Positions 48,908 to 62,922 of a DNA stretch of 64,000 bases are shown here, piece after piece. Every line of letters starts with the position of its first letter. The stretch's first letter is position 1. The notes under the pieces were generated by a model. That model made no database searches. It saw only the letters and a list, made by a program, of their open reading frames with translations, and was not told where the DNA came from. The position numbers were made by a program, and so were the translations under genes. Source of the DNA: Longimicrobiales bacterium (GTDB lineage Bacteria; Gemmatimonadota; Gemmatimonadetes; Longimicrobiales; Gaopeijiaceae); assembly GCA_041690395.1 (NCBI GenBank), contig JAWLHJ010000003.1:608001-672000 (forward strand), read 5' to 3'.

Positions 48908-50806
48908 TCAGTTGCGCATGGTCCAGCGGAGGCCGTACGAGGTCCGGAGGGCCGGCAAGACCCGCCCCGGGAACGCCTGGAGGTTCCGGCGTACGGTGAC
49001 GTTCTCCCAAGACACGAAGATCCGGACCGTCACGATCCGCACCTGGATGCGGGCGTCCCAGCTCTGGTAGAAGGGCACCGTCACGAGTTGCGTGCCGTCC
49101 GGATCGTCGTCCGGCGGGGGAGCGAAGACCTGCATGGGGTCGTGGCCCCGCACCCCCACGCTCGCCCTGAGCTCCAGGTTCTCGGAGTCCATGTACACAC
49201 GGTGGAAGTCGAACGCGCCCCGGTAGATCCGCGCCGGGAGATACGGACCCGGCCGGTCCCACTCCTGGTACGAGCCCACGAGATCGAGGCCTTCGAGCGG
49301 GGTCGGCACGCGTCCGTGCGCTTCCCATCCCCGGCGGGTCACACCTGGCACCGGGTCGGCGCCGAGGTCGGGCGCCAGCCCCAACGGCAGCGAGACGTCG
49401 TGCTCGAGCCCGAGCGCGGCCGCCGAGACGGTCGCGCCACGCCACGAGAGCATGGCGCCCGCCCGGTAGGTCGTCCGGTCCGTGAGCCAAAGCGTGGCCG
49501 GACGGCGGGACTCCCAGGCGGGTTGCGCCGGGTCGACCGGCGCCTCCGGATCGTCGGGATCCGGCTCGGCAACCGGCGGCGGCGTGCGGTCCAGCACCGG
49601 GCCGGAGCGGGCCCCGTACCGTCCCGAGCTCCAGTCGCCGAACAGCGTGACACCCGCGAGGGGCTCCACCCAGCCGCCGACCGACCGGCTCCACGGCCGC
49701 GCCCCCTTCCAGTCCTCGCGCGTCACGCGGCCCGTGACGCCCCCGAGACCCTCGCGGCGCCACCCACCCTCGACGTCCAGGCGATTCTCGAGGAGGTCGT
49801 CTCCGCCGATGAGGCGAAACGCTCCGTCCGCCCACAGTCCGGCCGCCTCGAGCGAGAGCCGCCCCCCGTGCTGCGTGCGCCCCCCTCCTTCGGTCGCGTA
49901 GAGCGGGCGCTCGTCGTCCGTATCGACGGTGTGGCGGCCGGTGAAGAGCTCGGCCACGACGCCGTCGGCGAGTCGAGCCCGCCCCCGGAGCGTCACGTCC
50001 GTGCGGGTCACCGGCGCGGGATAGTCGGCGACCTCGGAGCGCGACCCCATGCGTCGGTAGTCGAGCGCGATACCGGCGGCCTCCCCCCGGTGGAGCTGGT
50101 ACCGGACCCAACTCCCCGTCCGGCTTCCGGTCTCCCGGCCACCGGCGCCGCGCGTGTCGGAGCGCTCGAGCGCCAGGCCCAGGCTCCCGCCCAGCGCGTT
50201 CGGAGCGGTGAACGTGCCGCGGAACAGATTGTTGTCGAGATCGCCCGTCCCGGCCTCGACCAGGGAGTACGGCCGGTGGTCCTCGTAGTCCAGCGACCAC
50301 ATCTCCACGAGAATCCGCCCACCGCTCCGCCTGACGCGCACGCGCTCGATCCCTCCGAGGCCGACGCGCTGCAGATCGACGACCCCTCCCGACATCGGCA
50401 GCAGCTCGAAGCCGTCACGGATGACGCGGACGCCGCCGGCGCCATGAGCGAACGCGCTGAACGCCGCGGGCGTCCCGTAATCGCCTGCCTGGAGCGGCAC
50501 GACCCCGGGAACCTCGTCCACGAGCTCCACCAGCGTGTGGGCTCCGGACGCCATGATCTGCTCGTGGTCCCAATTCCAGGTGCCCATCTCCCACCCGGAG
50601 CGGACCCCGTCGGCGTGCGCCGGGAGGTTGTGGAAGTCCGGTACGCTGTCCGTCGTCAGCGTGTCGGCCGTCACCGAATCGGGCGCCATCCGAGCGACCT
50701 CGGCCGAGTCGGGCCGTGGCAGCGAGTCGGGCACGGGGTCCTGGGCGACCGCCCCTGCCGGCCACGCGCCCAGGACGAAGAGAAGGACGGGAAAGCGCTT
50801 CGTCAC
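48908..50806 (-). CDS. Outer-membrane beta-barrel protein with a TonB plug-like N-terminal domain
   Basis: Signal peptide, LVDEVPGV...RDG plug-like region, amphipathic strands, ends GLRWTMRN. Confidence 0.65.
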   Translation of the reverse strand: MTKRFPVLLFVLGAWPAGAVAQDPVPDSLPRPDSAEVARMAPDSVTADTLTTDSVPDFHNLPAHADGVRSGWEMGTWNWDHEQIMASGAHTLVELVDEVPGVVPLQAGDYGTPAAFSAFAHGAGGVRVIRDGFELLPMSGGVVDLQRVGLGGIERVRVRRSGGRILVEMWSLDYEDHRPYSLVEAGTGDLDNNLFRGTFTAPNALGGSLGLALERSDTRGAGGRETGSRTGSWVRYQLHRGEAAGIALDYRRMGSRSEVADYPAPVTRTDVTLRGRARLADGVVAELFTGRHTVDTDDERPLYATEGGGRTQHGGRLSLEAAGLWADGAFRLIGGDDLLENRLDVEGGWRREGLGGVTGRVTREDWKGARPWSRSVGGWVEPLAGVTLFGDWSSGRYGARSGPVLDRTPPPVAEPDPDDPEAPVDPAQPAWESRRPATLWLTDRTTYRAGAMLSWRGATVSAAALGLEHDVSLPLGLAPDLGADPVPGVTRRGWEAHGRVPTPLEGLDLVGSYQEWDRPGPYLPARIYRGAFDFHRVYMDSENLELRASVGVRGHDPMQVFAPPPDDDPDGTQLVTVPFYQSWDARIQVRIVTVRIFVSWENVTVRRNLQAFPGRVLPALRTSYGLRWTMRN

Positions 50807-52299
50807 CCGCTCCGGCTCCGGACCCATTGGACGAGAAGGCGGGTCGGGAAGCCGTACCCGCCCTTCCGGCGATAGGGCAGGTCGCCCTCTCCGTACGCGG
50901 TTCCGGCGATGTCGAGATGCGCCCACCGGGCATCCCCGACGAACTCCTTCAGGAAGACCGCCGCCGTGATCGTGCCCGCCGAACGCCCGCCGATGTTCTG
51001 GAGATCGGCGGTCTCGCTGTCGAGCTGCTTCCGGTACTCGTCCCAGAGCGGCAGCTGCCAGCAGCGCTCTCCGGACACGGTGCCGGCGTCGAGCAGCTCC
51101 CGCACCAGCGCCTCGTCGTTGCCCAGCACGGCGGCCGCCTGGTCTCCGAGCGCGACGACCACGGCCCCGGTGAGGGTCGCGCAGTCCACCATGGCCGCCG
51201 GGCCCAGACGCGCTCCGAACGCCAGCGCGTCGGCCAGGATCAGCCGGCCCTCGGCGTCCGTGTTGATCACCTCGACCGTCTTGCCGGCCAGGGTCCGGAT
51301 GACGTCACCGGGCTTGACCGCGGTCCCCGACGGAAGGTTCTCGGACGACGGCACGATGCCGACGACGTTCGCCCTCACGCCCAGCTCGGCGATCGCCTGC
51401 ATGGCGCCGATGACCGCCGCCCCGCCCGACATGTCGAACTTCATGTCCTGCATGCCGAGGGACGGCTTGATCGAGATGCCGCCGGCGTCGAAGGTGAGCC
51501 CCTTCCCGACGAGCACCAGGGGCGGATCGCCCTTCTCGCCCCCCTCGTGCCGCATGACGATCAGGCGCGCTTCTTCCTCGGAGCCACGGGACACGGCCAG
51601 GATCGCGTGCATCCCCTCCTCCACCATGCGCGCCTCGTCGTAGATGTCGACGGACATGCCGACGGAGCCCGCGATCCGGACGGCCTCCTCGGCGAGGTGG
51701 GTGGGCGTCGCGAGGTTTCCCGGACGGGACTGCAGCGTGCGCGCGAGGTTCTCGCCGCGCGCGATGGCGGCTCCGGCCATGGTGGCGTTGCCCCGGGCGT
51801 CGTCGTGTCCGGCGCCGACCAGGTCGACGGCGCGGACGGGCACGACCGGGTTCTCGTCATCGGGTGTCTTCAGCTCGGTGAAGCGCCACGCGGCCAGCGC
51901 CGCGCCCTCCGCGGCGGCCTGCGCCACGATGTCCGGCGCCAGCGCGTCGAACCCCTCCAGCGACACGGCTCCGGACTCCATCCGGAATCGCTCGGCCGCA
52001 CGAACCAGTCTCCCCGCCGTGCGACGCACCGTCTCGGCATCGACCTTCTCGGCCTTGCCGAGCCCGAGGAGCAGCACCCGCTCCGGACCTTTCGCCGTTC
52101 CCGGGGAGAAGAGGAGCAACTCGTCGTCCGGGCGTCCCCTCATGTCGCCGCGCTGCAGGGCCCGGGCGATCTGGCCTCCGAGGACCTCGTCGAGATCCGC
52201 GAGCGCCCCCTGAGGGGTCTCGGTCCCGCGCGGGATGCCGACCCCGAGGATAGGCGTCTCATGGGCCTCCGGCTTCACATCGACGTAACGGAGCTGCAT
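50803..52299 (-). CDS. pepA: Leucyl aminopeptidase (M17)
   Basis: GKGLTFDAGG, MKFDMSG, NTDAEGRL, HLDIAG. Confidence 0.96.
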   Translation of the reverse strand: MQLRYVDVKPEAHETPILGVGIPRGTETPQGALADLDEVLGGQIARALQRGDMRGRPDDELLLFSPGTAKGPERVLLLGLGKAEKVDAETVRRTAGRLVRAAERFRMESGAVSLEGFDALAPDIVAQAAAEGAALAAWRFTELKTPDDENPVVPVRAVDLVGAGHDDARGNATMAGAAIARGENLARTLQSRPGNLATPTHLAEEAVRIAGSVGMSVDIYDEARMVEEGMHAILAVSRGSEEEARLIVMRHEGGEKGDPPLVLVGKGLTFDAGGISIKPSLGMQDMKFDMSGGAAVIGAMQAIAELGVRANVVGIVPSSENLPSGTAVKPGDVIRTLAGKTVEVINTDAEGRLILADALAFGARLGPAAMVDCATLTGAVVVALGDQAAAVLGNDEALVRELLDAGTVSGERCWQLPLWDEYRKQLDSETADLQNIGGRSAGTITAAVFLKEFVGDARWAHLDIAGTAYGEGDLPYRRKGGYGFPTRLLVQWVRSRSG

Positions 52300-52467
52300 G
52301 GGGTGTGTCCAAGGAGGAAAGGCGCGGGTCCGAGCCAACGGGCGCGCGCTGCGTCGGGCGCGTACCCGGGGGCCCGGAATTGCACGGAAGCTACCCGGGG
52401 AAGCGGAGCCGGATCAAGGCGGACGCCCGCAGCACCGGCCCGGTGAGAAGGCGCCGACCGGCGACGC

Positions 52468-54084
52468 TCAGAACGAGCGCCAGAGCCCCAGCTGCAGCCT
52501 CGTCCCTCCAAGGCTCGTGCCCCACTGCCTCTGTCCGGCGACGGTGGTCCGGAGATCCTCGAACAACCGGAACCCGAGCCTCAGGTCGACCGCATGAGAG
52601 ATCAGGTCCTCCTGCGACCTCGTCGTGCGGTAGAGGCGATAGGCGAGCTGAGCGTCGACCGGTCCGATACTCCCGGACGCGCCCGGGCCGACGGCGAGTG
52701 AGCGGAGATCTTCCCGGGCCCAGAGTCTCCCGGACGCGCGGAGCCACACGCGTCCCGCACGTTGATCGAATGCCGCCGCGACCGAGCGGCCCCGGGCGGC
52801 GTCACCCCAGCGCATGACGGCACCGTCCACGGACACGCCTCCGGTCGCGTGCCGGACCGACAGGCCCAGGGAGCGCTCGTCACGGACCGGGGCTCCGACC
52901 AGAAGCGTGTCTCCCGCCAGCCCCGAGCGCCTCCGCGCGAAGCCGCCTTCCAGCGCGAGCGGACCCCACACGTCGACGGACCCGCGCAGGCGGAGCCGCC
53001 CCACGGTGAGGGAAGAAGCGTCGAAGGGTCGATCCACCCTCACATCGCTCGTCAGGGCCAGAGGCCCGGCCCTCGCCGACTGACTCCACCCCGCGAACGT
53101 GCGTCGATACCCCGGTCCCTCCCGGAGCCAATGGAGCGAGACGTCGGACGCGTAGCGCCACGTGCGCCCTCCGAGGCGGAGGTCGGTGAATACGGTGGCC
53201 TTGGGAAGATCCGTCGAGAACCCCTCGTCCGACCGGGATGGCTCCAGCCCGGCCGCCGCTCCGACCCCGAACCTGCGTCCCCCACCCCGGATCAGCATGC
53301 CGTCCCAGTAGGCGCTGAAACGCTCGTAAGGATTGTAGAATCGACCGACGCGCACGTCCATCGGGACACGCTCGAAGCGCCGCGACACGGACAGCTCATA
53401 GGCGCGCAGGCTCACCGCGGGAACCGCCGCGAACGTCTCCCCGTAGCGATAGGCGGCGCGGAGGTTGCCACGCACGGAGATCCCCCCCGGGAGCTCGGTC
53501 GCCGTGAACGCCAGCCGACCGACCGAGCTCGCGAAGCGACGCCGGGTGTCTCCGAACGACGAGCCCGTCCAGGAGGTCCGCGACTCCCGGGCGTCCAGCT
53601 CGAGTCCCATCCGCCCCCGCACCCTCGGGCCGGTCACGGGATCGTCATCTCGCGCCACCGTGGTCGCCACGGGAATCGGGGTCGGCGCGTCGGCCGGACC
53701 CTCACGCGGGGCCCCGTCGTCGGCCGACCGAAGCAGAACGTAGACCGCCCCGCCCCGCTCCAGCTCCATCGAGCCCGGAAGGAGCGCAGCCACCGAACGT
53801 CTTCGAGAGACCGACAGCACCTCCAACCTCGCACCCGGCGCGTCTGCGGTCGCCGACAGATAGGCGACCAGGGTGTCCCCCATCGATACACCGTGGTCGA
53901 CGCCGATCGGCAGGTAGATCCCCTCGACGCCGACGTAGTCGACGGTGACGAGCGTGCGGGGCGGCTCCTGCCCGGAGACCGGGGCGGCGGCCGAGACGGC
54001 GACCGAGGCCATGCCGAGGCCCACACCCAAGACGAGCGTCCTGACGGCCCGCAACACGGTCAGCTCCGCCCCGTCGGGTGACAC
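52468..54084 (-). CDS. Putative outer-membrane beta-barrel (porin) of the multiheme cytochrome operon
   Basis: Signal peptide, alternating amphipathic strands, C-terminal Phe (LGLWRSF). Confidence 0.65.
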   Translation of the reverse strand: MSPDGAELTVLRAVRTLVLGVGLGMASVAVSAAAPVSGQEPPRTLVTVDYVGVEGIYLPIGVDHGVSMGDTLVAYLSATADAPGARLEVLSVSRRRSVAALLPGSMELERGGAVYVLLRSADDGAPREGPADAPTPIPVATTVARDDDPVTGPRVRGRMGLELDARESRTSWTGSSFGDTRRRFASSVGRLAFTATELPGGISVRGNLRAAYRYGETFAAVPAVSLRAYELSVSRRFERVPMDVRVGRFYNPYERFSAYWDGMLIRGGGRRFGVGAAAGLEPSRSDEGFSTDLPKATVFTDLRLGGRTWRYASDVSLHWLREGPGYRRTFAGWSQSARAGPLALTSDVRVDRPFDASSLTVGRLRLRGSVDVWGPLALEGGFARRRSGLAGDTLLVGAPVRDERSLGLSVRHATGGVSVDGAVMRWGDAARGRSVAAAFDQRAGRVWLRASGRLWAREDLRSLAVGPGASGSIGPVDAQLAYRLYRTTRSQEDLISHAVDLRLGFRLFEDLRTTVAGQRQWGTSLGGTRLQLGLWRSF

Positions 54085-55313
54085 GTGAGACAGGCCGCCG
54101 ATTCATAAACGTAGCCGGCGCGCTCGCTGTGCTTGTCGTCCATCTCGCTCTGGCGGTGCTCGTGGCACCCGAGGCACGAGAACGTCGCGTAATCACCGGG
54201 CGTCTCATGGCACTCGGCGCAATCGGCTCCGGTGTGCGCGCCCGAGAAGATGGGGAAGTCGTGCGCGAACGTCGCGCCGTCCCACGTGCTCGTCCGGTGG
54301 CACGCGGTGCAGTCCGTCGGAAAGCCGATGCCCTGGTGCTCGCCCTCGTAATCGATGCGGTGACAGGCGTAACAGTCCTGCGGGCCACTCGGTTGGTAGA
54401 GGGTCTCCGACGAGGAGCCGACGTGACAGTCCGCGCACGCGAGCCGGTCGTGATCGGGCGGGATGTCGAACCCGGTGGCCAGCCCGTGCTCGAAGACGGC
54501 CCCGTCCCAGTCGTTCATGTCGTGGCACATGAGGCAGGTGGTCGGGAAGCCCGAGCCGGCGTGCTCGTCCTGGTAGTCGTCCAGGTGGCACGTCACGCAG
54601 TCCTCGGGCCCGGCGGGCGGCTGCGGAATGGAGCCACCCGCCCCGCTGTGGCAGGAGGCACATTCGATGCCCGCGTGCCGCCCCAGGAGCGCGAAGCCCC
54701 CCGAAATCTCGAAGTGGTCGAACGCGACGTCCCGGAAATCGAGCATCGAGTGGCAATCCAGGCACTCCGTGGAGAAGCCCAGCGCTTCATGGTCGACCAG
54801 CGGATTGAGTCGGTAGTCGCCCATGTGGCACGCCACGCATTCACGGTCGAGGGGCGTGAACGCCCCGCCCAGGTCGTCGACGTGGCAACTTTCGCAGGAC
54901 GTCTGAAAGTGGGCGCCCTCGAGCGGGAAGTCGGCCGGGTGCACGGTCCCCGGGTCCATGAGCGTGAACGAGGTCGTCGTGTGGCAGGAGGCGCACGGCC
55001 GGGTCGCGCTGCCCTGGTGGACATCGACGTGGCACGAGGCACAGTCCACCGGGTCGGCGATCGAGGTCTCGAACCGGAGCCCCTCGTGACAGGACGCGCA
55101 CGTCACGTCCTCGTGGCGCCCGTCCAGGCGGTATCCGGCGTCCCGCGCGTGATCGAACACGATGTCCGGCCGCAGGGGCGCCCAGGCCTCGGTCGTGTGA
55201 CAGTCGACGCATGAGATCCCCTCGGGAAGTACGCCGTGCGGCTGGACCTGCGTCTGCCCCGACACCGCCAACGGAATGGACGCCAGGAACGTCAGGAGCA
55301 GCGGCGCGCGCAT
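54060..55313 (-). CDS. Multiheme cytochrome c, 16 CxxCH
   Basis: 16 CxxCH motifs counted, with F(P)LxGxH repeats and a signal peptide; start may be the GTG at 55319. Confidence 0.93.
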   Translation of the reverse strand: MRAPLLLTFLASIPLAVSGQTQVQPHGVLPEGISCVDCHTTEAWAPLRPDIVFDHARDAGYRLDGRHEDVTCASCHEGLRFETSIADPVDCASCHVDVHQGSATRPCASCHTTTSFTLMDPGTVHPADFPLEGAHFQTSCESCHVDDLGGAFTPLDRECVACHMGDYRLNPLVDHEALGFSTECLDCHSMLDFRDVAFDHFEISGGFALLGRHAGIECASCHSGAGGSIPQPPAGPEDCVTCHLDDYQDEHAGSGFPTTCLMCHDMNDWDGAVFEHGLATGFDIPPDHDRLACADCHVGSSSETLYQPSGPQDCYACHRIDYEGEHQGIGFPTDCTACHRTSTWDGATFAHDFPIFSGAHTGADCAECHETPGDYATFSCLGCHEHRQSEMDDKHSERAGYVYESAACLTCHPTGRS

Positions 55314-55315
55314 GG

Positions 55316-56953
55316 TCACGACCCACCTCCATGGCAGTCGACACAGTCGGTGCCGACGGGCCGGTACCGGGTGAAGGGCCCGCGCTCTCCCTGCTCCGTG
55401 ACGTGACACGAAGCGCATGGCACCTCGCGATGCGCCCCGTCCAGCGCGAATGCCGAGCGCCCGTGGTCGAACCGGGCGTCCACGGGCACGAAGGCTTGGG
55501 TCCCGTGGCACGCGGCGCACCCCAGCTCGGGGAACTCGCCCGAGTGGGGATCCTCCGAGCGGTGGCACGACGCGCACGTCGTGTCCTGGGCTCCGCCATC
55601 CACCCCCGCGTGATCGAAGGCGACGATGTCGAAGGCGTCCGTCACGTGGCACACTTCGCACGCGCGGTCGGCGTAGAGATCGTCGTGCGGGCTCTCGAGG
55701 GCGTGGCAGGACGCGCAGTCCGTCGCGCCGAGGCCGAGGGTGAAGCGGTCATGGCCCCGCTCCGGATCGAGGTGGCAGGCCCAACAGGGCGTCACCGCAT
55801 GGGCTCCCGTGAGGGGGAGCGCCGAGGCGGCATGCCGCTCCACGCCGTACGCGGACGGAGCCCAGCGCGCCTCCGTGTGGCAGGTCGCGCACGCCGTCCA
55901 TCGATCGCCCGATCCGGGGAGCGCGTGCCGGTCCACGTGGCACGACCCGCAGGACGTCGCCACCGGCTTCGGATAGGTGGCACCGGCGCTCCCCGGGAGG
56001 TACCGCATGCGGATCAGCTCCGTCGCCGGCGGACGCCCGGGCCGGTGGCAGGCGACACAGTCGGCCGCCGCGTGCGCACCCACGAGCGGGAACGCCGTCC
56101 GGCCGTGATCGAACCTGCCGTCGAGGGATGCCGAGCTCAGAGCTCCCCAACCGGTGGGCGAATGACACGAGGCGCAGGCGCCGCTCATGCGTCCCGCGTG
56201 GGGATCCGCATGGCAGTCGGCGCAGCTCCCGAATGCGACCGGACGATACGGGACGGGATCGCGATCTTCGGCGTGACACGCGGCGCATTCGACCCGGGCA
56301 TGCAGGCCCTCGAGCCGGAAGCGTGCGCGCTCGTGCGCGAACGCGGTCGGGTCCGTCCAGGTCCCCGCGTCGTGGCAGTCGGCGCAGGACCGATCCCGGA
56401 ACTGATCGCCATGGGGGTCGCTGTCCGCGTGACACGTGGCGCAGCCCTGGTCGAGACCCAGGAACGTCCGGCCGAGGGCCCCGTGCTCGGTCAGGGTCCG
56501 GACCACGACCGGATCCGCGATCAGCTCCGCGCGGTGGCACTCCCGGCACGCCACGTCTCCGTGGCTCAGCTCCAGCGCGTATCCGGTCTCCCCGTGCTGG
56601 AACGCCGCCTCGTCGAGGCGCCGGAGGTCGAAGTCCGGGCCCAGATGCTCCTGATGGCAGTCCGCGCAATCCCGCTGGATCGAAGCATGGTAGCCCCGGT
56701 CGGCCGCGATGCGCGTCTCGATCAACGCATGACACGAGAGGCAGCGGTCCGGAGAGGTTCCGCGCTTTCCGAGCTCGTGGCAGGCGGTGCAGTTCCGGAT
56801 CCCCTCGAGCTCGGCATGGGGCGCCGCGAGCTTTCCGGGCGAGAGGATCTGGGCGGCGGCGGGAGCGGTCGCGACGCAGGCCAGACCCGTGAGCAGCAGG
56901 AGCACGACCCCGGTGCCGCGCCCGCCGCGCCCGACCTCGCGGCGCGGTCTCAT
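55316..56953 (-). CDS. Multiheme cytochrome c, 19 CxxCH
   Basis: 19 CxxCH motifs counted, with FDH...FxLxGxH repeats; signal peptide AAA-QILSPG. Confidence 0.94.
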   Translation of the reverse strand: MRPRREVGRGGRGTGVVLLLLTGLACVATAPAAAQILSPGKLAAPHAELEGIRNCTACHELGKRGTSPDRCLSCHALIETRIAADRGYHASIQRDCADCHQEHLGPDFDLRRLDEAAFQHGETGYALELSHGDVACRECHRAELIADPVVVRTLTEHGALGRTFLGLDQGCATCHADSDPHGDQFRDRSCADCHDAGTWTDPTAFAHERARFRLEGLHARVECAACHAEDRDPVPYRPVAFGSCADCHADPHAGRMSGACASCHSPTGWGALSSASLDGRFDHGRTAFPLVGAHAAADCVACHRPGRPPATELIRMRYLPGSAGATYPKPVATSCGSCHVDRHALPGSGDRWTACATCHTEARWAPSAYGVERHAASALPLTGAHAVTPCWACHLDPERGHDRFTLGLGATDCASCHALESPHDDLYADRACEVCHVTDAFDIVAFDHAGVDGGAQDTTCASCHRSEDPHSGEFPELGCAACHGTQAFVPVDARFDHGRSAFALDGAHREVPCASCHVTEQGERGPFTRYRPVGTDCVDCHGGGS

Positions 56954-58260
56954 GCCGCCCCGAACTTGGTATCGACCTCGACCCCGCACTGGTCGAGGAA
57001 GCGCGTCGGCAGCTCACCCCCCGCGAAGATCAGGACCTGGTCGTTCGGGAGCGCGTAGGGGTGCCCTCCCTCCACGGTCAGCCAGACCCGATCGGCCTCG
57101 ATGCGGAAGACCTCGGTGCTCCAATGGACGTCGATCCGCCCCTCGGCGATCGCACTCTCGACACGGTCGCGGTTGCCGGGCTTGATGCGGCTGAACCGGT
57201 CGCGACGGTAGGAGAGCGCCACGCGGGTGCCGCGTTCCTCGGAAAGGGCGAGCGCCGCCTCCACGGCCGAATCTCCGCCACCGACGACGAGCACGCGGTC
57301 GCCTCGGAACGCCTCGGGCTCGGCGAGGGCGTACTGGACCTTGGGGAGCTCCTCGCCGGGCACGCCGAGCTTCCGCGGGATCCCCCTTCGGCCGATAGCC
57401 AGAATCACGCGAGGGGCGCGGAAGGACTCCCCCTGGGTACGCACCTCGAAGCCACCCTCCACCCGCGCGACGTCGTGCACGGTGAGCCCGAGACGGAAGG
57501 GCAGATCCGCGTCCACCGCGACACGGGTCCAGACCGCCATGAGGTCCTCCTTCCGGATCTCGCGTCCCCCGATGCGGCCGACCCCCGGGATCTTCACCGG
57601 CTCCGTCATGACCAGCTTCTTGCGGGGGTAATGGCGGACCGTCCCCCCCAGATCCGGTTCCTTGTCGATGGTCACGAAGCGGAGCCCGGCACGCTGGGCA
57701 TGAAGCGAGGCGGACAGTCCCGCCGGTCCCGCTCCGACGATGACCAGGTCGAGGCCGTCCCCACGTCGCTTGGCCCGACCGGCGATCCCTTCGATGCACT
57801 GCCGGCCCTGCTCGAACGCGTTCCGGATGAGCCCCATCCCGCCCAGCTCCCCGACGATGTACAGGCCCGGTACGTTGGTTTCGAAATCCGGCTTGATGCG
57901 GGGGATGTCCACGCCGCGCTTCGCGGTCCCGAACACCAGCTGGATCGCCTCCATGGGGCAGGAGCGCTCGCACAGGCCGTGTCCGATGCAGGACGCCGGC
58001 GCGATGGGGACGGCCTGTCCGTCACGGATGCCCAGCACCTGCCCCTCGGGGCACACGTCCACGCAGCTCCCCGTTCCGATGCACCGGTCGGGATCGATCA
58101 CCGGATGCAGCGACGTCGGTTCGTGCAGGCCGTACTCCAGGGCCAGGACCTCCGCTTCGTCGGTCCGTCGTTCCTTCCGCCGGAGTCCGAGCAGCACGGG
58201 CCCGGACGCGGCGACCACGAGCCCCACCCCGATCAGCGTGACGAGCGTGCCGTCCGTCAT
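56950..58260 (-). CDS. Membrane-anchored ferredoxin + FAD/NAD(P)H oxidoreductase (TrxB-like fold)
   Basis: N-terminal TM, CIGTGSCVDVCP and CIGHGLCERSCP, GAGPAG, GGGDSA...YRR. Confidence 0.88.
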   Translation of the reverse strand: MTDGTLVTLIGVGLVVAASGPVLLGLRRKERRTDEAEVLALEYGLHEPTSLHPVIDPDRCIGTGSCVDVCPEGQVLGIRDGQAVPIAPASCIGHGLCERSCPMEAIQLVFGTAKRGVDIPRIKPDFETNVPGLYIVGELGGMGLIRNAFEQGRQCIEGIAGRAKRRGDGLDLVIVGAGPAGLSASLHAQRAGLRFVTIDKEPDLGGTVRHYPRKKLVMTEPVKIPGVGRIGGREIRKEDLMAVWTRVAVDADLPFRLGLTVHDVARVEGGFEVRTQGESFRAPRVILAIGRRGIPRKLGVPGEELPKVQYALAEPEAFRGDRVLVVGGGDSAVEAALALSEERGTRVALSYRRDRFSRIKPGNRDRVESAIAEGRIDVHWSTEVFRIEADRVWLTVEGGHPYALPNDQVLIFAGGELPTRFLDQCGVEVDTKFGAA

Positions 58261-59117
58261 CCGAAGATCCAGGTGTAACCGAAGGCGACCGCGACGCCGA
58301 CGTGGACGATCAGGACCAGCAGCATCACGATCGCGAGCGGCAGATGGAACGCGTGCCAGTATCGGAAGGCACGCTGGAAAGGACGGATCAGGGCGACCTG
58401 TTGCCGTCTCAGCCGGTCTTCCTGGAGCCGGTCCACGAGAGCCGCGCGCGTGTGCTCGGGGACGCCCGCCGCGGACAGGCGCCGTTCGATCCGGGCCCGG
58501 TCACGACGACGTGTCCAGCGGTACCGGACGGAGAGGCCGACCGCCGAGAGGATCCCCGGGGGGCCATCCGATGCGGGCTCCGCGCCGATATCCAGGAGCT
58601 CGAGGACCTGGGCCGCCGGCAGGCGGAGTCCGGCCTCCACGTCTTCCAGGAGCCCCCTCATCTGGTCCTGGATCTCCCGCACCTGGAGGAAGCGGCCGTT
58701 CACGGTCTTCGGGATCCAGACATAGATCCACCGCCCGAAGACACCGCTCGCGACGACCATCGCCATGCTCCAGAACGCGATGGCGACCAGCCCGCCGAAG
58801 CGGAAGGTCGTGTGCAGGAGGACGAGGAAGGGCCCGAGGAGACAGAGGAAGATGTGGAAGTGCAGCCAGCCCTTGAGCGTGCCGACCCGGGAGAGCGCCC
58901 GGACCCTCTTACGCAGCGAGTAGAGCCCGACGCCGAGGAGGATCATCGCGGTCCCGACGACACCGAACCCCTGGCCGATCAAGCCGGTCGGGGCATACAG
59001 GTCGTGCAGGGGCGAGAAAGGGCGCTCGGTGAGCGGCGTGACGTAATAGGCGAGGCCTCCCCAGAAGGCCCCGCCGGCGATGGACACGCCCAGCAGGAAC
59101 AGCACTCGTACGAACAC
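58257..59117 (-). CDS. Polytopic membrane protein, probable diheme b (ferric-reductase-like)
   Basis: About 5 TM helices; WLHFHIFLCLLGPFLVLLH and WHAFHLPLAIVMLLVLIVH each carry a His pair 14 residues apart; start is inferred. Confidence 0.75.
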   Translation of the reverse strand: MFVRVLFLLGVSIAGGAFWGGLAYYVTPLTERPFSPLHDLYAPTGLIGQGFGVVGTAMILLGVGLYSLRKRVRALSRVGTLKGWLHFHIFLCLLGPFLVLLHTTFRFGGLVAIAFWSMAMVVASGVFGRWIYVWIPKTVNGRFLQVREIQDQMRGLLEDVEAGLRLPAAQVLELLDIGAEPASDGPPGILSAVGLSVRYRWTRRRDRARIERRLSAAGVPEHTRAALVDRLQEDRLRRQQVALIRPFQRAFRYWHAFHLPLAIVMLLVLIVHVGVAVAFGYTWIFG

Positions 59118-59236
59118 GCGTTCGCTCTCGGCTCGATACCCCGGCACTCGGCCAGGCGCGTATGCGTGGGAGGAGCACACACGCGGTAGGGGTCGGATGC
59201 ACCACGAGGTGCTCCGGCCGGTCGGAGCGGTATCTG

Positions 59237-59251
59237 GCAAGCGTCATGCCA
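59237..59251 (-). promoter_or_regulatory. sigma54 -24/-12 promoter of the cytochrome operon
   Basis: TGGCATGACGCTTGC (GG-N10-GC). Confidence 0.75.
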
Positions 59252-59301
59252 TGGCGAGGGCCGCGGAAAGCGAGCGGCCGTCTGGGCTATTCGACGGTCA
59301 C

Positions 59302-59318
59302 TGCACCATTCTGGTGCA
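59302..59318. promoter_or_regulatory. NtrC-type enhancer (UAS) palindrome
   Basis: TGCACCA-TTC-TGGTGCA, about 50 nt upstream of the -24 element. Confidence 0.7.
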
Positions 59319-59369
59319 TCAGGATCGTGGTCGCTGCGTTCCGTGACCGGAAAGAGAAGCCCTCCTCTT

Positions 59370-61085
59370 TCAGCGGCCCGACAGGATCGCTTCGACGAGA
59401 TCTTCCGACGCCTCGGACGCGTAACTCCCGTGAGGTCGTGGATACCGGTCCAGCCCCTCCCGGAAGCACCGGTGGTAGGTCCGTCCCGACCGGAGCGTCA
59501 TCGGTCCGCTCTCCGGACGCCAGGTCGCACCCTCCGGCACGTCGGCTTCGGGCATCCGGATGCCGAACCGCTCCCGCGTTTCAGCCTCGGTCCGCGAGAC
59601 CAGCGCCTCCCCGAGGTCGATCGCGTCGAGGAGCCGCCGCTCGGTATAGACCGTCAGGGTGTCCCGCGCGCCGTCCGGGTCGCCCGCCTCGTAGCGCGCT
59701 CCGGCCTCACGCTCGAGCCCGGCCTGCTCGGCCACGAGGCGTGTCTCGAACGCCTCGAGGTCCGCGGTGACGGGCCGGAGGAAGGCTCCGGGCTGCTCGC
59801 ACGCGTGGTAGAGGAGCCGCTTGTGGACCCGGAACGCCGAGCGCGTCGCTTCGAGCGGAGCGAAGTCCGCGTCGAGGAAGGCGTCGTCGGCGTCCTTGGT
59901 CATGTAGCGGTGCTGCTTGTACTCCGGTGGCACGTCCCGGACGCCCAGCCGCACCGGCACAAACGGACTCGCCACCGAACCGGTGATGGACATCCAGAGC
60001 GGGACGAGCTCCGGATGCACGCCGGGCCTCAGGTGCGCCACCTGGCCGTAGCCCGAGCCGTCGTTCGACCACCGCGGATCGCGGACGAGCGCCATCATGT
60101 CCGCCACCGACACCGGAGCCATCCCCCGAACCTCTTCTTCGAGGAGAGGCGGATACCGGAACAGGTTGTGCGGATCGTCCTGGGAGGGATCGCTCGGGAA
60201 GGTGCGGCCGTAGACACGGTGCAGGTTGAAGGGCTCGTCTCCGTCCGGATCCCACCACCCCTGCTCGACGGCGAAGGAGACGAGGTTCTCCGAGCCCATG
60301 TGGTCGGGTGAGCGCTCGAAATCGACCGGGAAGTCGCCGATGTAGCCCGGATACGATACGCGCACGTCGTCCGGCCCGAGCCGCTCGGCGGCCCAGAGCC
60401 CCTGCCCTCCGGCGTAGTCGATGAGCACCCACCCCTCCTCGGCGTCGGCGAAGAGATGCGAGTTGCCGCCGTACGTGGCGTAGCCGTGCCCGTCGATGAG
60501 CCGCCCCACGATCTCCACGGCCTCGCGGGCGCTGCCGGCCCGCTCCATGACGATGCGGGACAGGTCGCTGTAGTTGAGCCCCCGCTGCGGGACGGGCGTC
60601 ATCTCCACCAGCTCCGGGCGCGACGGCGACCAGACGTCCCGGGCCGCCAGGCCGCGCTCGTTCAACCCTCCGTTCGTGAGCGGCGGCGGAAAGCCCGCGA
60701 ACTCCGAATAGTTGGTCGTGATGAAGCGGAGCGTCTCCGTGACCTGGGGAATCCGGAAGCGTTCCCCGGGGATGCGCGCCTCCTCCGTGATGCCGACCTC
60801 CATGGTCGTGCCGGGCGGGAACGTGCGCGCGGGCGTGATCTCGTACCAATGGCTCGACGGCTCGTGACCGAAGCCGCCGAGCAGCACGGAGCCGTCTTCG
60901 GTGAGGTTCCGGCCCACGTAGAAGGCGATGCTCTTGGCGGGCATGGCCTCGCTCGGGCTTCGGGCCTCGGGCCCGGATACCGGCGCGGGTGATGGGGTCC
61001 GTACGGGGATCAGGAACAGGCAGGCCGCCAGAAAGGACGCCACTCCAGCGGTTCGTAGGGGGCGTCCGGAGAGCGGAGAGAGCAT
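59370..61085 (-). CDS. Secreted C69 family dipeptidase-like (Ntn-fold) protein
   Basis: SIAFYVGRNLTEDGSVL, NGGLNE, AREAVEIVG, ADAEEGW. Confidence 0.75.
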   Translation of the reverse strand: MLSPLSGRPLRTAGVASFLAACLFLIPVRTPSPAPVSGPEARSPSEAMPAKSIAFYVGRNLTEDGSVLLGGFGHEPSSHWYEITPARTFPPGTTMEVGITEEARIPGERFRIPQVTETLRFITTNYSEFAGFPPPLTNGGLNERGLAARDVWSPSRPELVEMTPVPQRGLNYSDLSRIVMERAGSAREAVEIVGRLIDGHGYATYGGNSHLFADAEEGWVLIDYAGGQGLWAAERLGPDDVRVSYPGYIGDFPVDFERSPDHMGSENLVSFAVEQGWWDPDGDEPFNLHRVYGRTFPSDPSQDDPHNLFRYPPLLEEEVRGMAPVSVADMMALVRDPRWSNDGSGYGQVAHLRPGVHPELVPLWMSITGSVASPFVPVRLGVRDVPPEYKQHRYMTKDADDAFLDADFAPLEATRSAFRVHKRLLYHACEQPGAFLRPVTADLEAFETRLVAEQAGLEREAGARYEAGDPDGARDTLTVYTERRLLDAIDLGEALVSRTEAETRERFGIRMPEADVPEGATWRPESGPMTLRSGRTYHRCFREGLDRYPRPHGSYASEASEDLVEAILSGR

Positions 61086-61178
61086 GGATGCGCTCCTCGT
61101 TGTAGCAGGCGAACGAGCGGTCGAAGCGCCTGCAAAGTAAGCGCGAATCCGGTGTCGCGCTCGCCGTCCGGAACCTCG

Positions 61179-61213
61179 TTGCACACCCCTCATCTTCGGT
61201 TTATGTTCGGTTT
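61179..61213 (+). promoter_or_regulatory. sigma70 promoter overlapped by a LexA-like direct repeat
   Basis: TTGCAC-17nt-TATGTT; CTTC-N7-GTTC, with TTCGGTTT repeated at an 11-nt period. Confidence 0.6.
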
Positions 61214-61258: not shown

Positions 61259-62638
61259 ATGTCGCAGTCCCGCGCGAGTGCCGAACATGTTCCCACCCAC
61301 CTGAACGGGCGGGGGTGGGCTCAGATTACGTCCCATCCCCCCACCCCCTTCCAACCCGCTTCCCCCCGGCCCGCCTCCCCCGGCAACCGCACGGCTCTTT
61401 GCCTCTGGCTTCCCACCTTCGAGCTCCGGCTCGAGCTCGTCCGCTCCCCGGAGCTCGACCGCACCTCCGTCGCGCTCCTCTCCGAGGGCGAGCACACGCA
61501 ACGGACCGTCTGGCAGGTCTCGGCACGAGCCCACGAAGCCGGAGTCCGGCCCGGCCAGCGCGTGTCCCAGGCCGTCTCGCTCTGCCCTGCCCTGACGCTG
61601 CTCGAGCCCGATCCGGCCCACTACGACGCAGCCACGGACATCCTCCTGGAAACCCTGACCGAGGTCTCTCCGGTGATCGAGCCTGCGGGACGGGGACGGG
61701 TCTTCCTGGGGATGGACGGGCTGGACCGCCTCTTCGGCCCGCCCCGGCGTCAGATCGAGCGGACACTCGGCGCGCTCTTCGAGATCTTCCCCGCCCCGCT
61801 CGTGGCCGCGTTCCGCGCCGGGATGGCGCCGGGGCGCTTCGGTGCCTGGGTGGCCGCGACCCGCGCCGGGGGAGGCGAGCCGGTGATCGTGCCCGAGCAC
61901 GAGCTGAGCGTGTTCCTCGGGGGCTGTCCCGTCCGTGTCCTCCAGGTCGATCCGCGCATGATCGAGCGGCTCGAGCGCCTCGGCATCGACACACTCGCGG
62001 CGCTCCGGGAGCTGCCGGAGCCGTCCCTCGTCGCCCAGTTCGGGAAAACCGGTCGCGCCATCCACGCCTGGGCTTCCGGCCGGCGCATCGATCCGGTCCG
62101 GCCGTGGCACCGCCCCCGCCCGCTGCGCGCATCGCTCGCGTTCTCGAATCCGGTGGGCATGGTCGACACCCTGCACGGCGCGCTCGACCGGCTCGTGGAG
62201 CGCGCGCTCACCCGTCCCGCGCGCCGTGGCCGGAGCGTGACGGGCGTCCGACTCGGCGCCCATCTGGAAGGCGGGGGCTCCTGGGTCGTGGAGGCCACGC
62301 TCCGGGAGCCCACCACCGTCTGTGAGCGCATCGCCGCGCCCCTGCGCTCGAAGATGGCCATCGCCCCGCCGCCGAAGGCCGTCGACACGCTCTTCTTCGA
62401 GATCACCGACTTCGGCGCGCCCTCGGCCCAGGAGAGCCTCTTCGACCGGAAGGACGCCGGAAGCCGGGAGGGTGCCGGAAGCGGCCCCCTCCAGGGCGAC
62501 GTACCGCCGTCCCTCCGCGATGCCGTGAAGGAGCTCAAGCTCCGGCTCGGTGACTCGCCGCTCTACCGCGTGGTCGAGCTCGACCCCTGGTCGCGGATTC
62601 CCGAGCGCCGCCACGCCCTTCTGCGTTTCGACCCGTAG
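61259..62638 (+). CDS. ImuB-like inactive Y-family DNA polymerase
   Basis: LCLWLP, AGVRPGQRVSQAVSLCP, SPVIE, LERLGI, QFG; acidic catalytic motif not evident; start is uncertain. Confidence 0.8.
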   Translation: MSQSRASAEHVPTHLNGRGWAQITSHPPTPFQPASPRPASPGNRTALCLWLPTFELRLELVRSPELDRTSVALLSEGEHTQRTVWQVSARAHEAGVRPGQRVSQAVSLCPALTLLEPDPAHYDAATDILLETLTEVSPVIEPAGRGRVFLGMDGLDRLFGPPRRQIERTLGALFEIFPAPLVAAFRAGMAPGRFGAWVAATRAGGGEPVIVPEHELSVFLGGCPVRVLQVDPRMIERLERLGIDTLAALRELPEPSLVAQFGKTGRAIHAWASGRRIDPVRPWHRPRPLRASLAFSNPVGMVDTLHGALDRLVERALTRPARRGRSVTGVRLGAHLEGGGSWVVEATLREPTTVCERIAAPLRSKMAIAPPPKAVDTLFFEITDFGAPSAQESLFDRKDAGSREGAGSGPLQGDVPPSLRDAVKELKLRLGDSPLYRVVELDPWSRIPERRHALLRFDP

Positions 62639-62655
62639 ATCGCGATCTCACGCAC

Positions 62656-62922
62656 ATGCCCAGACGCCCCCAGCTCCGTCCCCTCGGCCAGCCGAAGCCC
62701 GTCCACGTCCGCACCGACACGCAGGGCGATCCCGAATTCGTGCGACTCCCCGGGAAAACCGCGCGTAAGGTGATCCAGGTCCGGGAGCGCTGGCGGATCG
62801 ACGACGAGTGGTGGCGCCGGCCGATCTCCCGCGCCTACTACGCGGTCGCCCTCGACGACGGCCGCGCGCTCACGCTGTACCACGACCTCGTGGAACACAC
62901 ATGGTATGCACAACGCGGCTGA
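62656..62922 (+). CDS. Small protein resembling the ImuB C-terminal / DUF6504-like domain
   Basis: ERWRIDDEWWRRPISRAYY...LYHD...W. Confidence 0.7.
   Translation: MPRRPQLRPLGQPKPVHVRTDTQGDPEFVRLPGKTARKVIQVRERWRIDDEWWRRPISRAYYAVALDDGRALTLYHDLVEHTWYAQRG

Follow-up and report, generated by a model that had tools for sequence, protein, structure and literature searches.

The porin-cytochrome cluster PCC3, described from iron oxidizers (He et al., 2017, PMC5566968) and commonly cited as a putative Fe(II) oxidase, is given in print as four genes (PMC12442390, PMC9900912, PMC10734462). Its inner membrane protein (IMP) is defined by a length of ~300 amino acids (aa), five helices, an SGxxG motif on transmembrane (TM) helix 4 and Wx3Hx13H motifs on TM3 and TM5, and is modelled as quinone-reactive; its periplasmic cytochrome has a median of 21 heme motifs and a low aa-per-heme ratio (PMC5566968). 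The same work describes PCC4, a porin with three cytochromes of 4, 5 and 10 hemes, and lists 'other redox proteins' and Fe-S proteins beside PCC4 and porin-less IMP clusters (PMC5566968, Supplementary Table 6). In the portions of that work covered here these partners are not named as NAD(P)H donors and the flow is still drawn to quinone; through them, the idea of an NAD(P)H donor has a partial precedent in print.

We analyzed a window of 64,000 nucleotides from a Longimicrobiales bacterium of the Gemmatimonadota (assembly GCA_041690395.1, contig JAWLHJ010000003.1, positions 608,001 to 672,000; coordinates below count from the first base of the window unless another locus or contig is named), in which an earlier note, made from the letters alone, had picked out five tightly coupled minus-strand genes at 52468-59117 as a conduit from cytoplasmic pyridine nucleotides to the cell surface. 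Judged from their sequences, four of these genes are a divergent PCC3-family porin-cytochrome cluster and the fifth, for a membrane-anchored flavo-ferredoxin, is a conserved partner. The four-gene cluster is already known; new here is the flavo-ferredoxin as a putative fifth PCC3 partner.

The five genes and their PCC3 counterparts

The five genes lie in the place and on the strand that the earlier note had given. All are on the minus strand and are transcribed in the order IMP, flavoprotein, cytochrome 1, cytochrome 2 and barrel. At three of the four junctions start and stop overlap or nearly abut; cytochrome 2 and the barrel are 2 bases apart or overlap by 25 bases, according to which barrel start is taken. 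GC content at codon position 3 is 0.85-0.89 across the five genes with the chosen starts, slightly lower than in core neighbouring genes, and because of these values the five reading frames are taken to be real. The PCC3 assignment rests on the published signature and on gammaproteobacterial loci of PCC3 layout, which stand in for Slit_0867-0870 and Slit_1446-1449 of Sideroxydans ES-1. The IMP profile matched 60 of 400 scored gammaproteobacterial genomes, and nearly all of the loci compared (40 of 49 strong places) combine an IMP with a cytochrome of 21 or 24 hemes, a second and larger cytochrome and a long gene resembling porins, which is the published layout. The host genes show the features by which the IMP, the porin and the periplasmic cytochrome of PCC3 are recognized; with cytochromes of 19 and 16 motifs they do not fit PCC4.

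The first gene (58257-59117, minus strand) encodes a PCC3-type IMP of 286 aa with five predicted TM helices and SGxxG on TM4. The two His pairs already noticed in it are His88/102 and His258/272, each in a Wx3Hx13H motif, and W84, H88, H102, S124, G125, G128, W254, H258 and H272 are invariant in all 66 aligned rows. Predicted topology puts one pair near each membrane face, and the pairs would bind two b hemes. Loops 2 and 4, which carry means of 5.4 and 23.9 basic residues in the aligned homologues, are placed in the cytoplasm because of these charges; a basic helical loop of ~120 residues is predicted to be cytoplasmic. Family matches among the 66 members were to DUF4405 in 31, Ni_hydr_CYTB in 8 and Ferric_reduct in 4 (best E 0.051). 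Fold searches with the heme-free AlphaFold2 (AF2) model (pLDDT 85) gave middling scores and no match above background, E. coli superoxide oxidase ranking 50th (Z 6.4, rmsd 3.7, 134 aligned), and the IMP profile returned coiled-coil noise only from PDB sequences.

Both cytochromes carry Sec-type signal peptides, and their 19 and 16 CxxCH motifs sum to the 35 that had been counted before. Cytochrome 1 (55316-56953, minus strand; 545 aa, 19 motifs) has 40 His and 28.7 aa per heme and is the counterpart of the PCC3 periplasmic 21-heme cytochrome: it is 33.5% identical over residues 7-541 to the 21-heme protein of the PCC3-layout locus L046 (E 3e-62) and 25-34% identical to the 21/24-heme proteins of the gammaproteobacterial loci, and no relative was found in the PDB under E 0.1. 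Cytochrome 2 (54060-55313, minus strand; 417 aa, 16 motifs), with 33 His and 26.1 aa per heme, holds the gene position of the PCC3 'extracellular' cytochrome and matches the 51-heme protein of L046 weakly (27% identity, E 9e-14). The His counts would allow each heme one further His, as in bis-His wires. A repeat of the pattern FxH..LxxH..CxxCH occurs in four units in cytochrome 1 and three in cytochrome 2; it is unlike MtrA, as had been said, but it also opens the 51-heme protein of L046 and so is not peculiar to the host locus. Very large PCC3-type cytochromes were seen at L076:10551-20000 (plus strand, at least 102 CxxCH), L064:2650-7812 (minus strand, at least 69) and L070:4567-9675 (minus strand, at least 67), and in several Gemmatimonadota genomes a further cytochrome cluster (18, 16 motifs and more) adjoins the flavoprotein gene (L100:742-5710, L101:982-6121, L104:13792-20000).

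The last gene (52468-54057, minus strand, or to 54084 with an alternative start) encodes a predicted 22-stranded outer-membrane beta-barrel of 529 aa that ends in Phe. In the AF2 model (pLDDT 74) the barrel is formed by residues 145-528 and a small N-terminal beta domain by residues 34-108. The top structural matches are outer-membrane barrels (Cir: Z 18.3, rmsd 3.9, 367 aligned), the best being TonB-dependent transporters of the same size. An hhalign comparison of the barrel family with 28 porins of PCC3-layout loci gave a probability of 97.2% (E 3e-11, 347 columns; reversed control 0.3%), and neither the Plug family nor PF11854 (MtrB_PioB) matched the barrel. The earlier prediction of a barrel is supported by the 22 modelled strands; that it would hold a cytochrome is a conjecture. 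A literature search for the strand count of OmbB, for a comparison of barrel width, gave nothing usable. Two other loci (L102:10642-17264 and L109:7715-17067) have two cytochrome-barrel pairs behind one IMP.

The flavo-ferredoxin (56950-58260, minus strand; 436 aa) begins with a hydrophobic segment and a basic run, followed by a 2[Fe-S] ferredoxin domain (residues 52-108) and a domain of thioredoxin reductase (TrxR)/ferredoxin-NADP+ reductase (FNR) type (residues 171-431). Pfam finds a 4Fe-4S dicluster domain and Pyr_redox_3, which bears out the anchored Fe-S/FAD/NAD(P)H oxidoreductase claimed for this gene. The anchor is present in 63 of 66 rows and a Tat motif in none of them; the topology puts the flavoprotein on the same side as the basic loops of the IMP. 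These features suggest an FNR fused to its own ferredoxin and facing the cytoplasm. The top PDB sequence matches are TrxR-like proteins, Bdr and FNRs. We rejected a thioredoxin reductase, as none of 92 homologues has the redox-active CxxC after the ferredoxin domain, and a YpdA/Bdr bacillithiol disulfide reductase, as the NCBIfam YpdA model (TIGR04018) scores 165.6 bits, under its cut-off of 339.9. GGGDSA is present in 82 of the 92 homologues, in most with a Tyr-Arg or His-Arg motif behind it, a motif from which we presume a preference for NADPH. His replaces the second Cys of the second cluster motif in 90 of 92; in the first motif that place is taken by Cys in 41 homologues and by other residues in the remainder, Thr being the residue in 31, the host included.

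The nearest relatives of the flavoprotein are in Gemmatimonadota and Longimicrobiales metagenome-assembled genomes (68-73% identity). At L105:8838-10292, L110:8832-10265 and L111:9719-11305 the match begins past the anchor region, and these genes, directly after the IMP on the same strand, may lack an anchor. Complex prediction of the IMP with the flavoprotein scored 0.24 against a mark of 0.32 and was counted neither way, and a weak search for IMP-flavoprotein fusions among longer proteins found none and returned one SPOR-IMP protein. Our literature search, with most subscription journals outside its coverage and the supplement of PMC5566968 covered in part, found no text adding a flavoprotein to PCC3, and the arrangement is not described in the available portions of Shi et al. 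(2014), Zhong et al. (2018) and Garber et al. (2024). No exact match to a characterized system with another function emerged.

Co-occurrence of the IMP and the flavoprotein

Among 200 Gemmatimonadota genomes, all 46 with the IMP also have the flavoprotein, and the IMP is found in 46 of the 49 with the flavoprotein; 44 of 46 IMP copies have a flavoprotein within 5 kb. The pattern recurs among 399 gammaproteobacterial genomes, where the flavoprotein occurs in 41 of 45 IMP genomes and the IMP in 41 of 44 flavoprotein genomes. Here 41 of 48 IMP copies have a flavoprotein within 18 kb: on the opposite strand at no more than 4 kb in 34 (head to head in the loci read), on the same strand in 2 and at 5-18 kb in 5, the other 7 having it on another contig or not at all. 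In three gammaproteobacterial genomes the IMP is present twice, each time with a flavoprotein next to it. These counts leave out the seed genomes G000 and G001 and the unscored G219; of 69 gammaproteobacterial rows, the 20 that fell short of E 5e-28 were removed, and so were 4 weak second rows from Gemmatimonadota; 4-12 candidates were scored per genome, and the search profile was built partly from some of these loci. The parts of the result that are not circular are the near-absence of the flavoprotein from genomes that lack the IMP and the matches of an independent flavoprotein hidden Markov model, which was built only from L001-L050 and found the protein in 33 of 39 gammaproteobacterial IMP-seeded loci (seed L091 omitted). 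The correlation of 0.74 between IMP and flavoprotein distances was set aside as evidence, as it follows from shared descent.

Synteny bears out the co-conservation of the five genes: 19 of 20 IMP-seeded Gemmatimonadota loci hold all five and the remaining one lies at a contig end (2 of the 20 repeat flavoprotein-seeded loci). All five are also found in 24 of 50 flavoprotein-seeded loci, most of the others ending at contig ends, with hosts that include Gemmatimonadota, Rhodothermales, Bacteroidetes and Gammaproteobacteria, and the flavoprotein stays with the cluster across several gene orders. Frame breaks in cluster genes of L012, L048, L064 and L101 are possibly assembly errors. With distant IMP relatives, 8 of 20 loci adjoin a differently arranged flavin/cNMP/Fe-S protein. 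PCC4-like loci encode a Pyr_redox + cNMP + Fer4 protein of ~810 aa, which matches the list of He et al. by size and layout only; at L113:5294-10401 and L119:5460-19714 a Pyr_redox protein with two cNMP domains and Fer4 lies upstream of the distant IMP, followed by a decaheme protein with an FHA domain. The cNMP domains suggest that the donor enzyme is regulated.

The cultured Sideroxydans ES-1 has two PCC3 clusters and two flavoproteins. Slit_0866, which the supplement of PMC12016527 gives as an FAD pyridine nucleotide-disulfide oxidoreductase of 430 aa and which is absent from the main text of that source as available, adjoins the PCC3 porin Slit_0867, and five of its peptides are identical to the host flavoprotein at 11/11, 6/8, 5/7, 6/9 and 7/14 residues. 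The second homologue, Slit_0525, is the more abundant of the two, and both were detected in published ES-1 proteomes. In ES-1 the flavoprotein therefore adjoins one PCC3 cluster of two, and the copy numbers match. Two further observations were discarded as evidence: Slit_0866 and Slit_0525 go up in late magnetite cultures, but QueC and SucC do so as well, and the correlation of Slit_0525 with the porin Slit_1449 (0.95) is confounded, an unrelated protein giving 0.78-0.88.

Proposed electron flow and its alternatives

With a probability of about 60%, in our estimate, electrons run from NADPH through FAD, Fe-S clusters, two b hemes and c-heme wires to the outside, the system being an export chain and not an Fe(II) oxidase. 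A hydride from NADPH would be passed to FAD and single electrons then to two Fe-S clusters, one of them with a conserved His for a Cys ligand; the ferredoxin domain would meet the basic cytoplasmic loops of the IMP, whose inner and then outer b heme would be reduced, as in NOX, FRE and MsrQ. The 19-heme cytochrome would span the periplasm, the 16-heme cytochrome would pass into or through the barrel, and an acceptor outside, be it Fe(III), humics, an electrode or a partner cell, would be reduced. The membrane potential assists electrons on their way out, at a cost in proton-motive force, and because of this the chain would serve redox balance or the reduction of outside substrates, not energy conservation. 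Inward flow to NADP+ would need a donor far more reducing than Fe(II), with which a direct wire is not feasible. We favour export because of these energetics, and it agrees with the finding that the PCC3 genes of ES-1 are lower on Fe(II) than on thiosulfate (PMC8788666), as would suit a function different from Fe(II) oxidation. A membrane protein of this kind that takes electrons from a separate flavoenzyme in the cytosol has a precedent in MsrQ, whose donor is the cytosolic flavin reductase Fre and not quinones (PMC12525009). The earlier note had the conduit anatomy and the joint conservation right, and did not recognize in four of the five genes the published PCC3, whose inner-membrane di-heme protein had already been proposed as the membrane link to quinone; both the quinone bypass and the direction of flow in the host operon are what we infer.

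The alternative that survives best, though unlikely, is the quinone-linked PCC3 as published, with an IMP that exchanges electrons with the quinone pool and a flavoprotein that is a co-regulated NAD(P)H:quinone or ferredoxin-NADP+ reductase touching the conduit only via quinone. Di-heme cytochromes b are often quinone-reactive, and ES-1 has one flavoprotein homologue that stands alone. The IMP is modelled in this way by He et al. (PMC5566968), MsrQ itself binds a quinone (PMC12525009), and quinone mediation in the host chain is possible. A general quinone reductase, however, is not expected to be nearly confined to IMP genomes and duplicated with the cluster, and ordinary dehydrogenases could do that job.

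More doubtful is a chain that supplies cytoplasmic reducing power no further than the periplasm or the barrel lumen, for repair, detoxification or reductive metal-complex uptake; the cytochromes would then be a store in the periplasm and the barrel plugged or a substrate channel. MsrPQ is a precedent for it (PMC12525009), and the likeness of the barrel to TonB-dependent transporters of its own size speaks for it. The N-terminal domain in the barrel model could plug the pore, with which structural alignments starting at residue 33 are compatible, and the Sec signals of both cytochromes come with no lipobox, so that surface exposure of cytochrome 2 is a prediction. On the other side stand the lack of a Plug family match on the barrel and the heme counts of homologous loci, where the second cytochrome ranges from ~10 to >100 motifs and the first stays at 17-24, as would befit an extension outside and a fixed periplasmic span. 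A five-part wire that runs inward and makes NADPH from a very low-potential donor outside (a cathode, Fe(0) or a partner cell) is very unlikely, for although PCC3 was described from iron oxidizers and FNR-type enzymes are reversible, the membrane potential opposes such flow, the donor would have to lie well below NADP+/NADPH, the PCC3 transcripts of ES-1 fell on Fe(II), and the host has genes of the heme-copper oxidase family and no known donor of that kind.

Beyond the quinone models, the possible plug and the missing lipobox, several observations weigh against the export chain. No PCC3 is known to have a measured activity, direction or acceptor. The IMP has five TM segments and not the six of the ferric reductase domain (PMC12525009). 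The sampled genomes are kin, so that the co-occurrence counts are not independent events (no Fisher p-values were used); 4 of the 45 gammaproteobacterial IMP genomes have no flavoprotein match, and 11 of the 20 distant IMP loci show no such flavoprotein within the stretch compared. In ES-1, the protein table places Slit_0525 between queC and sucC, away from the second PCC3 cluster (Slit_1446-1449), which is expressed and has unrelated neighbours.

Applied to PCC3 at large, the proposal becomes a tentative one, to which we give slightly less than even odds: PCC3 would be a five-subunit, quinone-independent wire from NADPH to the surface, a membrane module like NOX and the ferric reductases that multiheme cytochromes extend through the entire Gram-negative envelope, in which the membrane potential drives the reduction of low-potential acceptors. 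Between about a ninth and a quarter of the sampled genomes of two distant groups have such clusters. Known outer-membrane conduits draw on the quinone pool, and a conduit fed by NADPH would, if true, represent another class of extracellular electron transfer, one linked to redox balance and not to respiration, and PCC3 genes in iron oxidizers and metagenomes would be read differently. A cultured strain, Sideroxydans ES-1 with its two PCC3 clusters and two flavoproteins (Slit_0866, Slit_0525), allows a direct test of the claim.

Genomic setting and relation to known systems

The operon sits in a block (52303-59369) that is present in the host and missing in the same-genus relative G604, between pepA and a C69 peptidase gene. 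In a blastn comparison with the G604 locus (L138) the match stops at 52302 and restarts at 59370, with ~105 bases between the matches in G604; the missing DNA is these five genes, as one block, and pepA and the C69 gene are adjacent in G604 and G606. The IMP profile matched none of six same-genus genomes (75-98% complete) and none of 24 same-family genomes in a separate sample. The block may be a discrete module, either gained in the host or lost in its relatives. The flanking C69-family peptidase-like gene (59370-61193, minus strand) is at the same site in G604 and G606 and not there in G607. An ImuB/Y-family polymerase-like gene (61259-62922, plus strand) is followed by a conserved 88-aa open reading frame with no Pfam match. 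An outer-membrane protein (48908-50926, minus strand) with a weak TonB plug match (E 1.7e-5) and no barrel family match is kept beside pepA in four relatives.

Elsewhere in the host genome, two Cytochrom_C_asm genes lie close together, and heme attachment machinery is therefore available. There are three matches to the heme-copper oxidase family (COX1), one of them just outside the window (contig C3, 673441-674676, plus strand). A second multiheme cluster (contig C6, 85638-91865) encodes proteins with 8, 17 and 16 motifs, one with a NapC/NirT-like N-terminus, and gives weak MtrC-domain matches.

Compared with PCC3, the host operon is alike in the IMP signature, the porin, the two multiheme cytochromes with 26-29 aa per heme and the order of these four genes. 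It differs in that PCC3 was published as four proteobacterial genes linked to quinone, whereas the host belongs to the Gemmatimonadota and has the flavo-ferredoxin inside the operon; its porin of 529 aa is shorter than those sampled in PCC3-layout loci, one of which was scanned and has SPOR/TPR domains, and its cytochromes have 19 and 16 motifs against the median of 21 for the PCC3 periplasmic protein. PCC4 and the porin-less clusters share a related IMP with two Hx13H motifs but have other cytochromes and another domain order in the flavoprotein. The flavo-ferredoxin resembles TrxR-type FNRs and YpdA/Bdr in its FAD and NADPH-type motifs without a catalytic CxxC, and differs from them in its fused ferredoxin domain and membrane anchor and in the YpdA score under the cut-off; a search of the ESM Atlas returned unnamed clusters only. 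With MtrCAB/MtoAB and the Geobacter Pcc systems the operon shares a porin and multiheme cytochromes as an outer-membrane conduit. In contrast to these systems, it has neither a decaheme MtrA nor a lipoprotein cytochrome, MtrB_PioB (PF11854) has no match in the host genome (98% complete), and the membrane link is a putative b-heme protein, not CymA or ImcH. Finally, NOX, FRE, STEAP and MsrQ with Fre are alike in two bis-His motifs on TM3 and TM5, basic cytoplasmic loops and a proposed donor that is an NAD(P)H flavoenzyme of the cytosol; NOX, FRE and MsrQ have six TM helices and the host IMP five, its donor would be a separate flavo-ferredoxin of TrxR fold, and its output a multiheme chain and a barrel.

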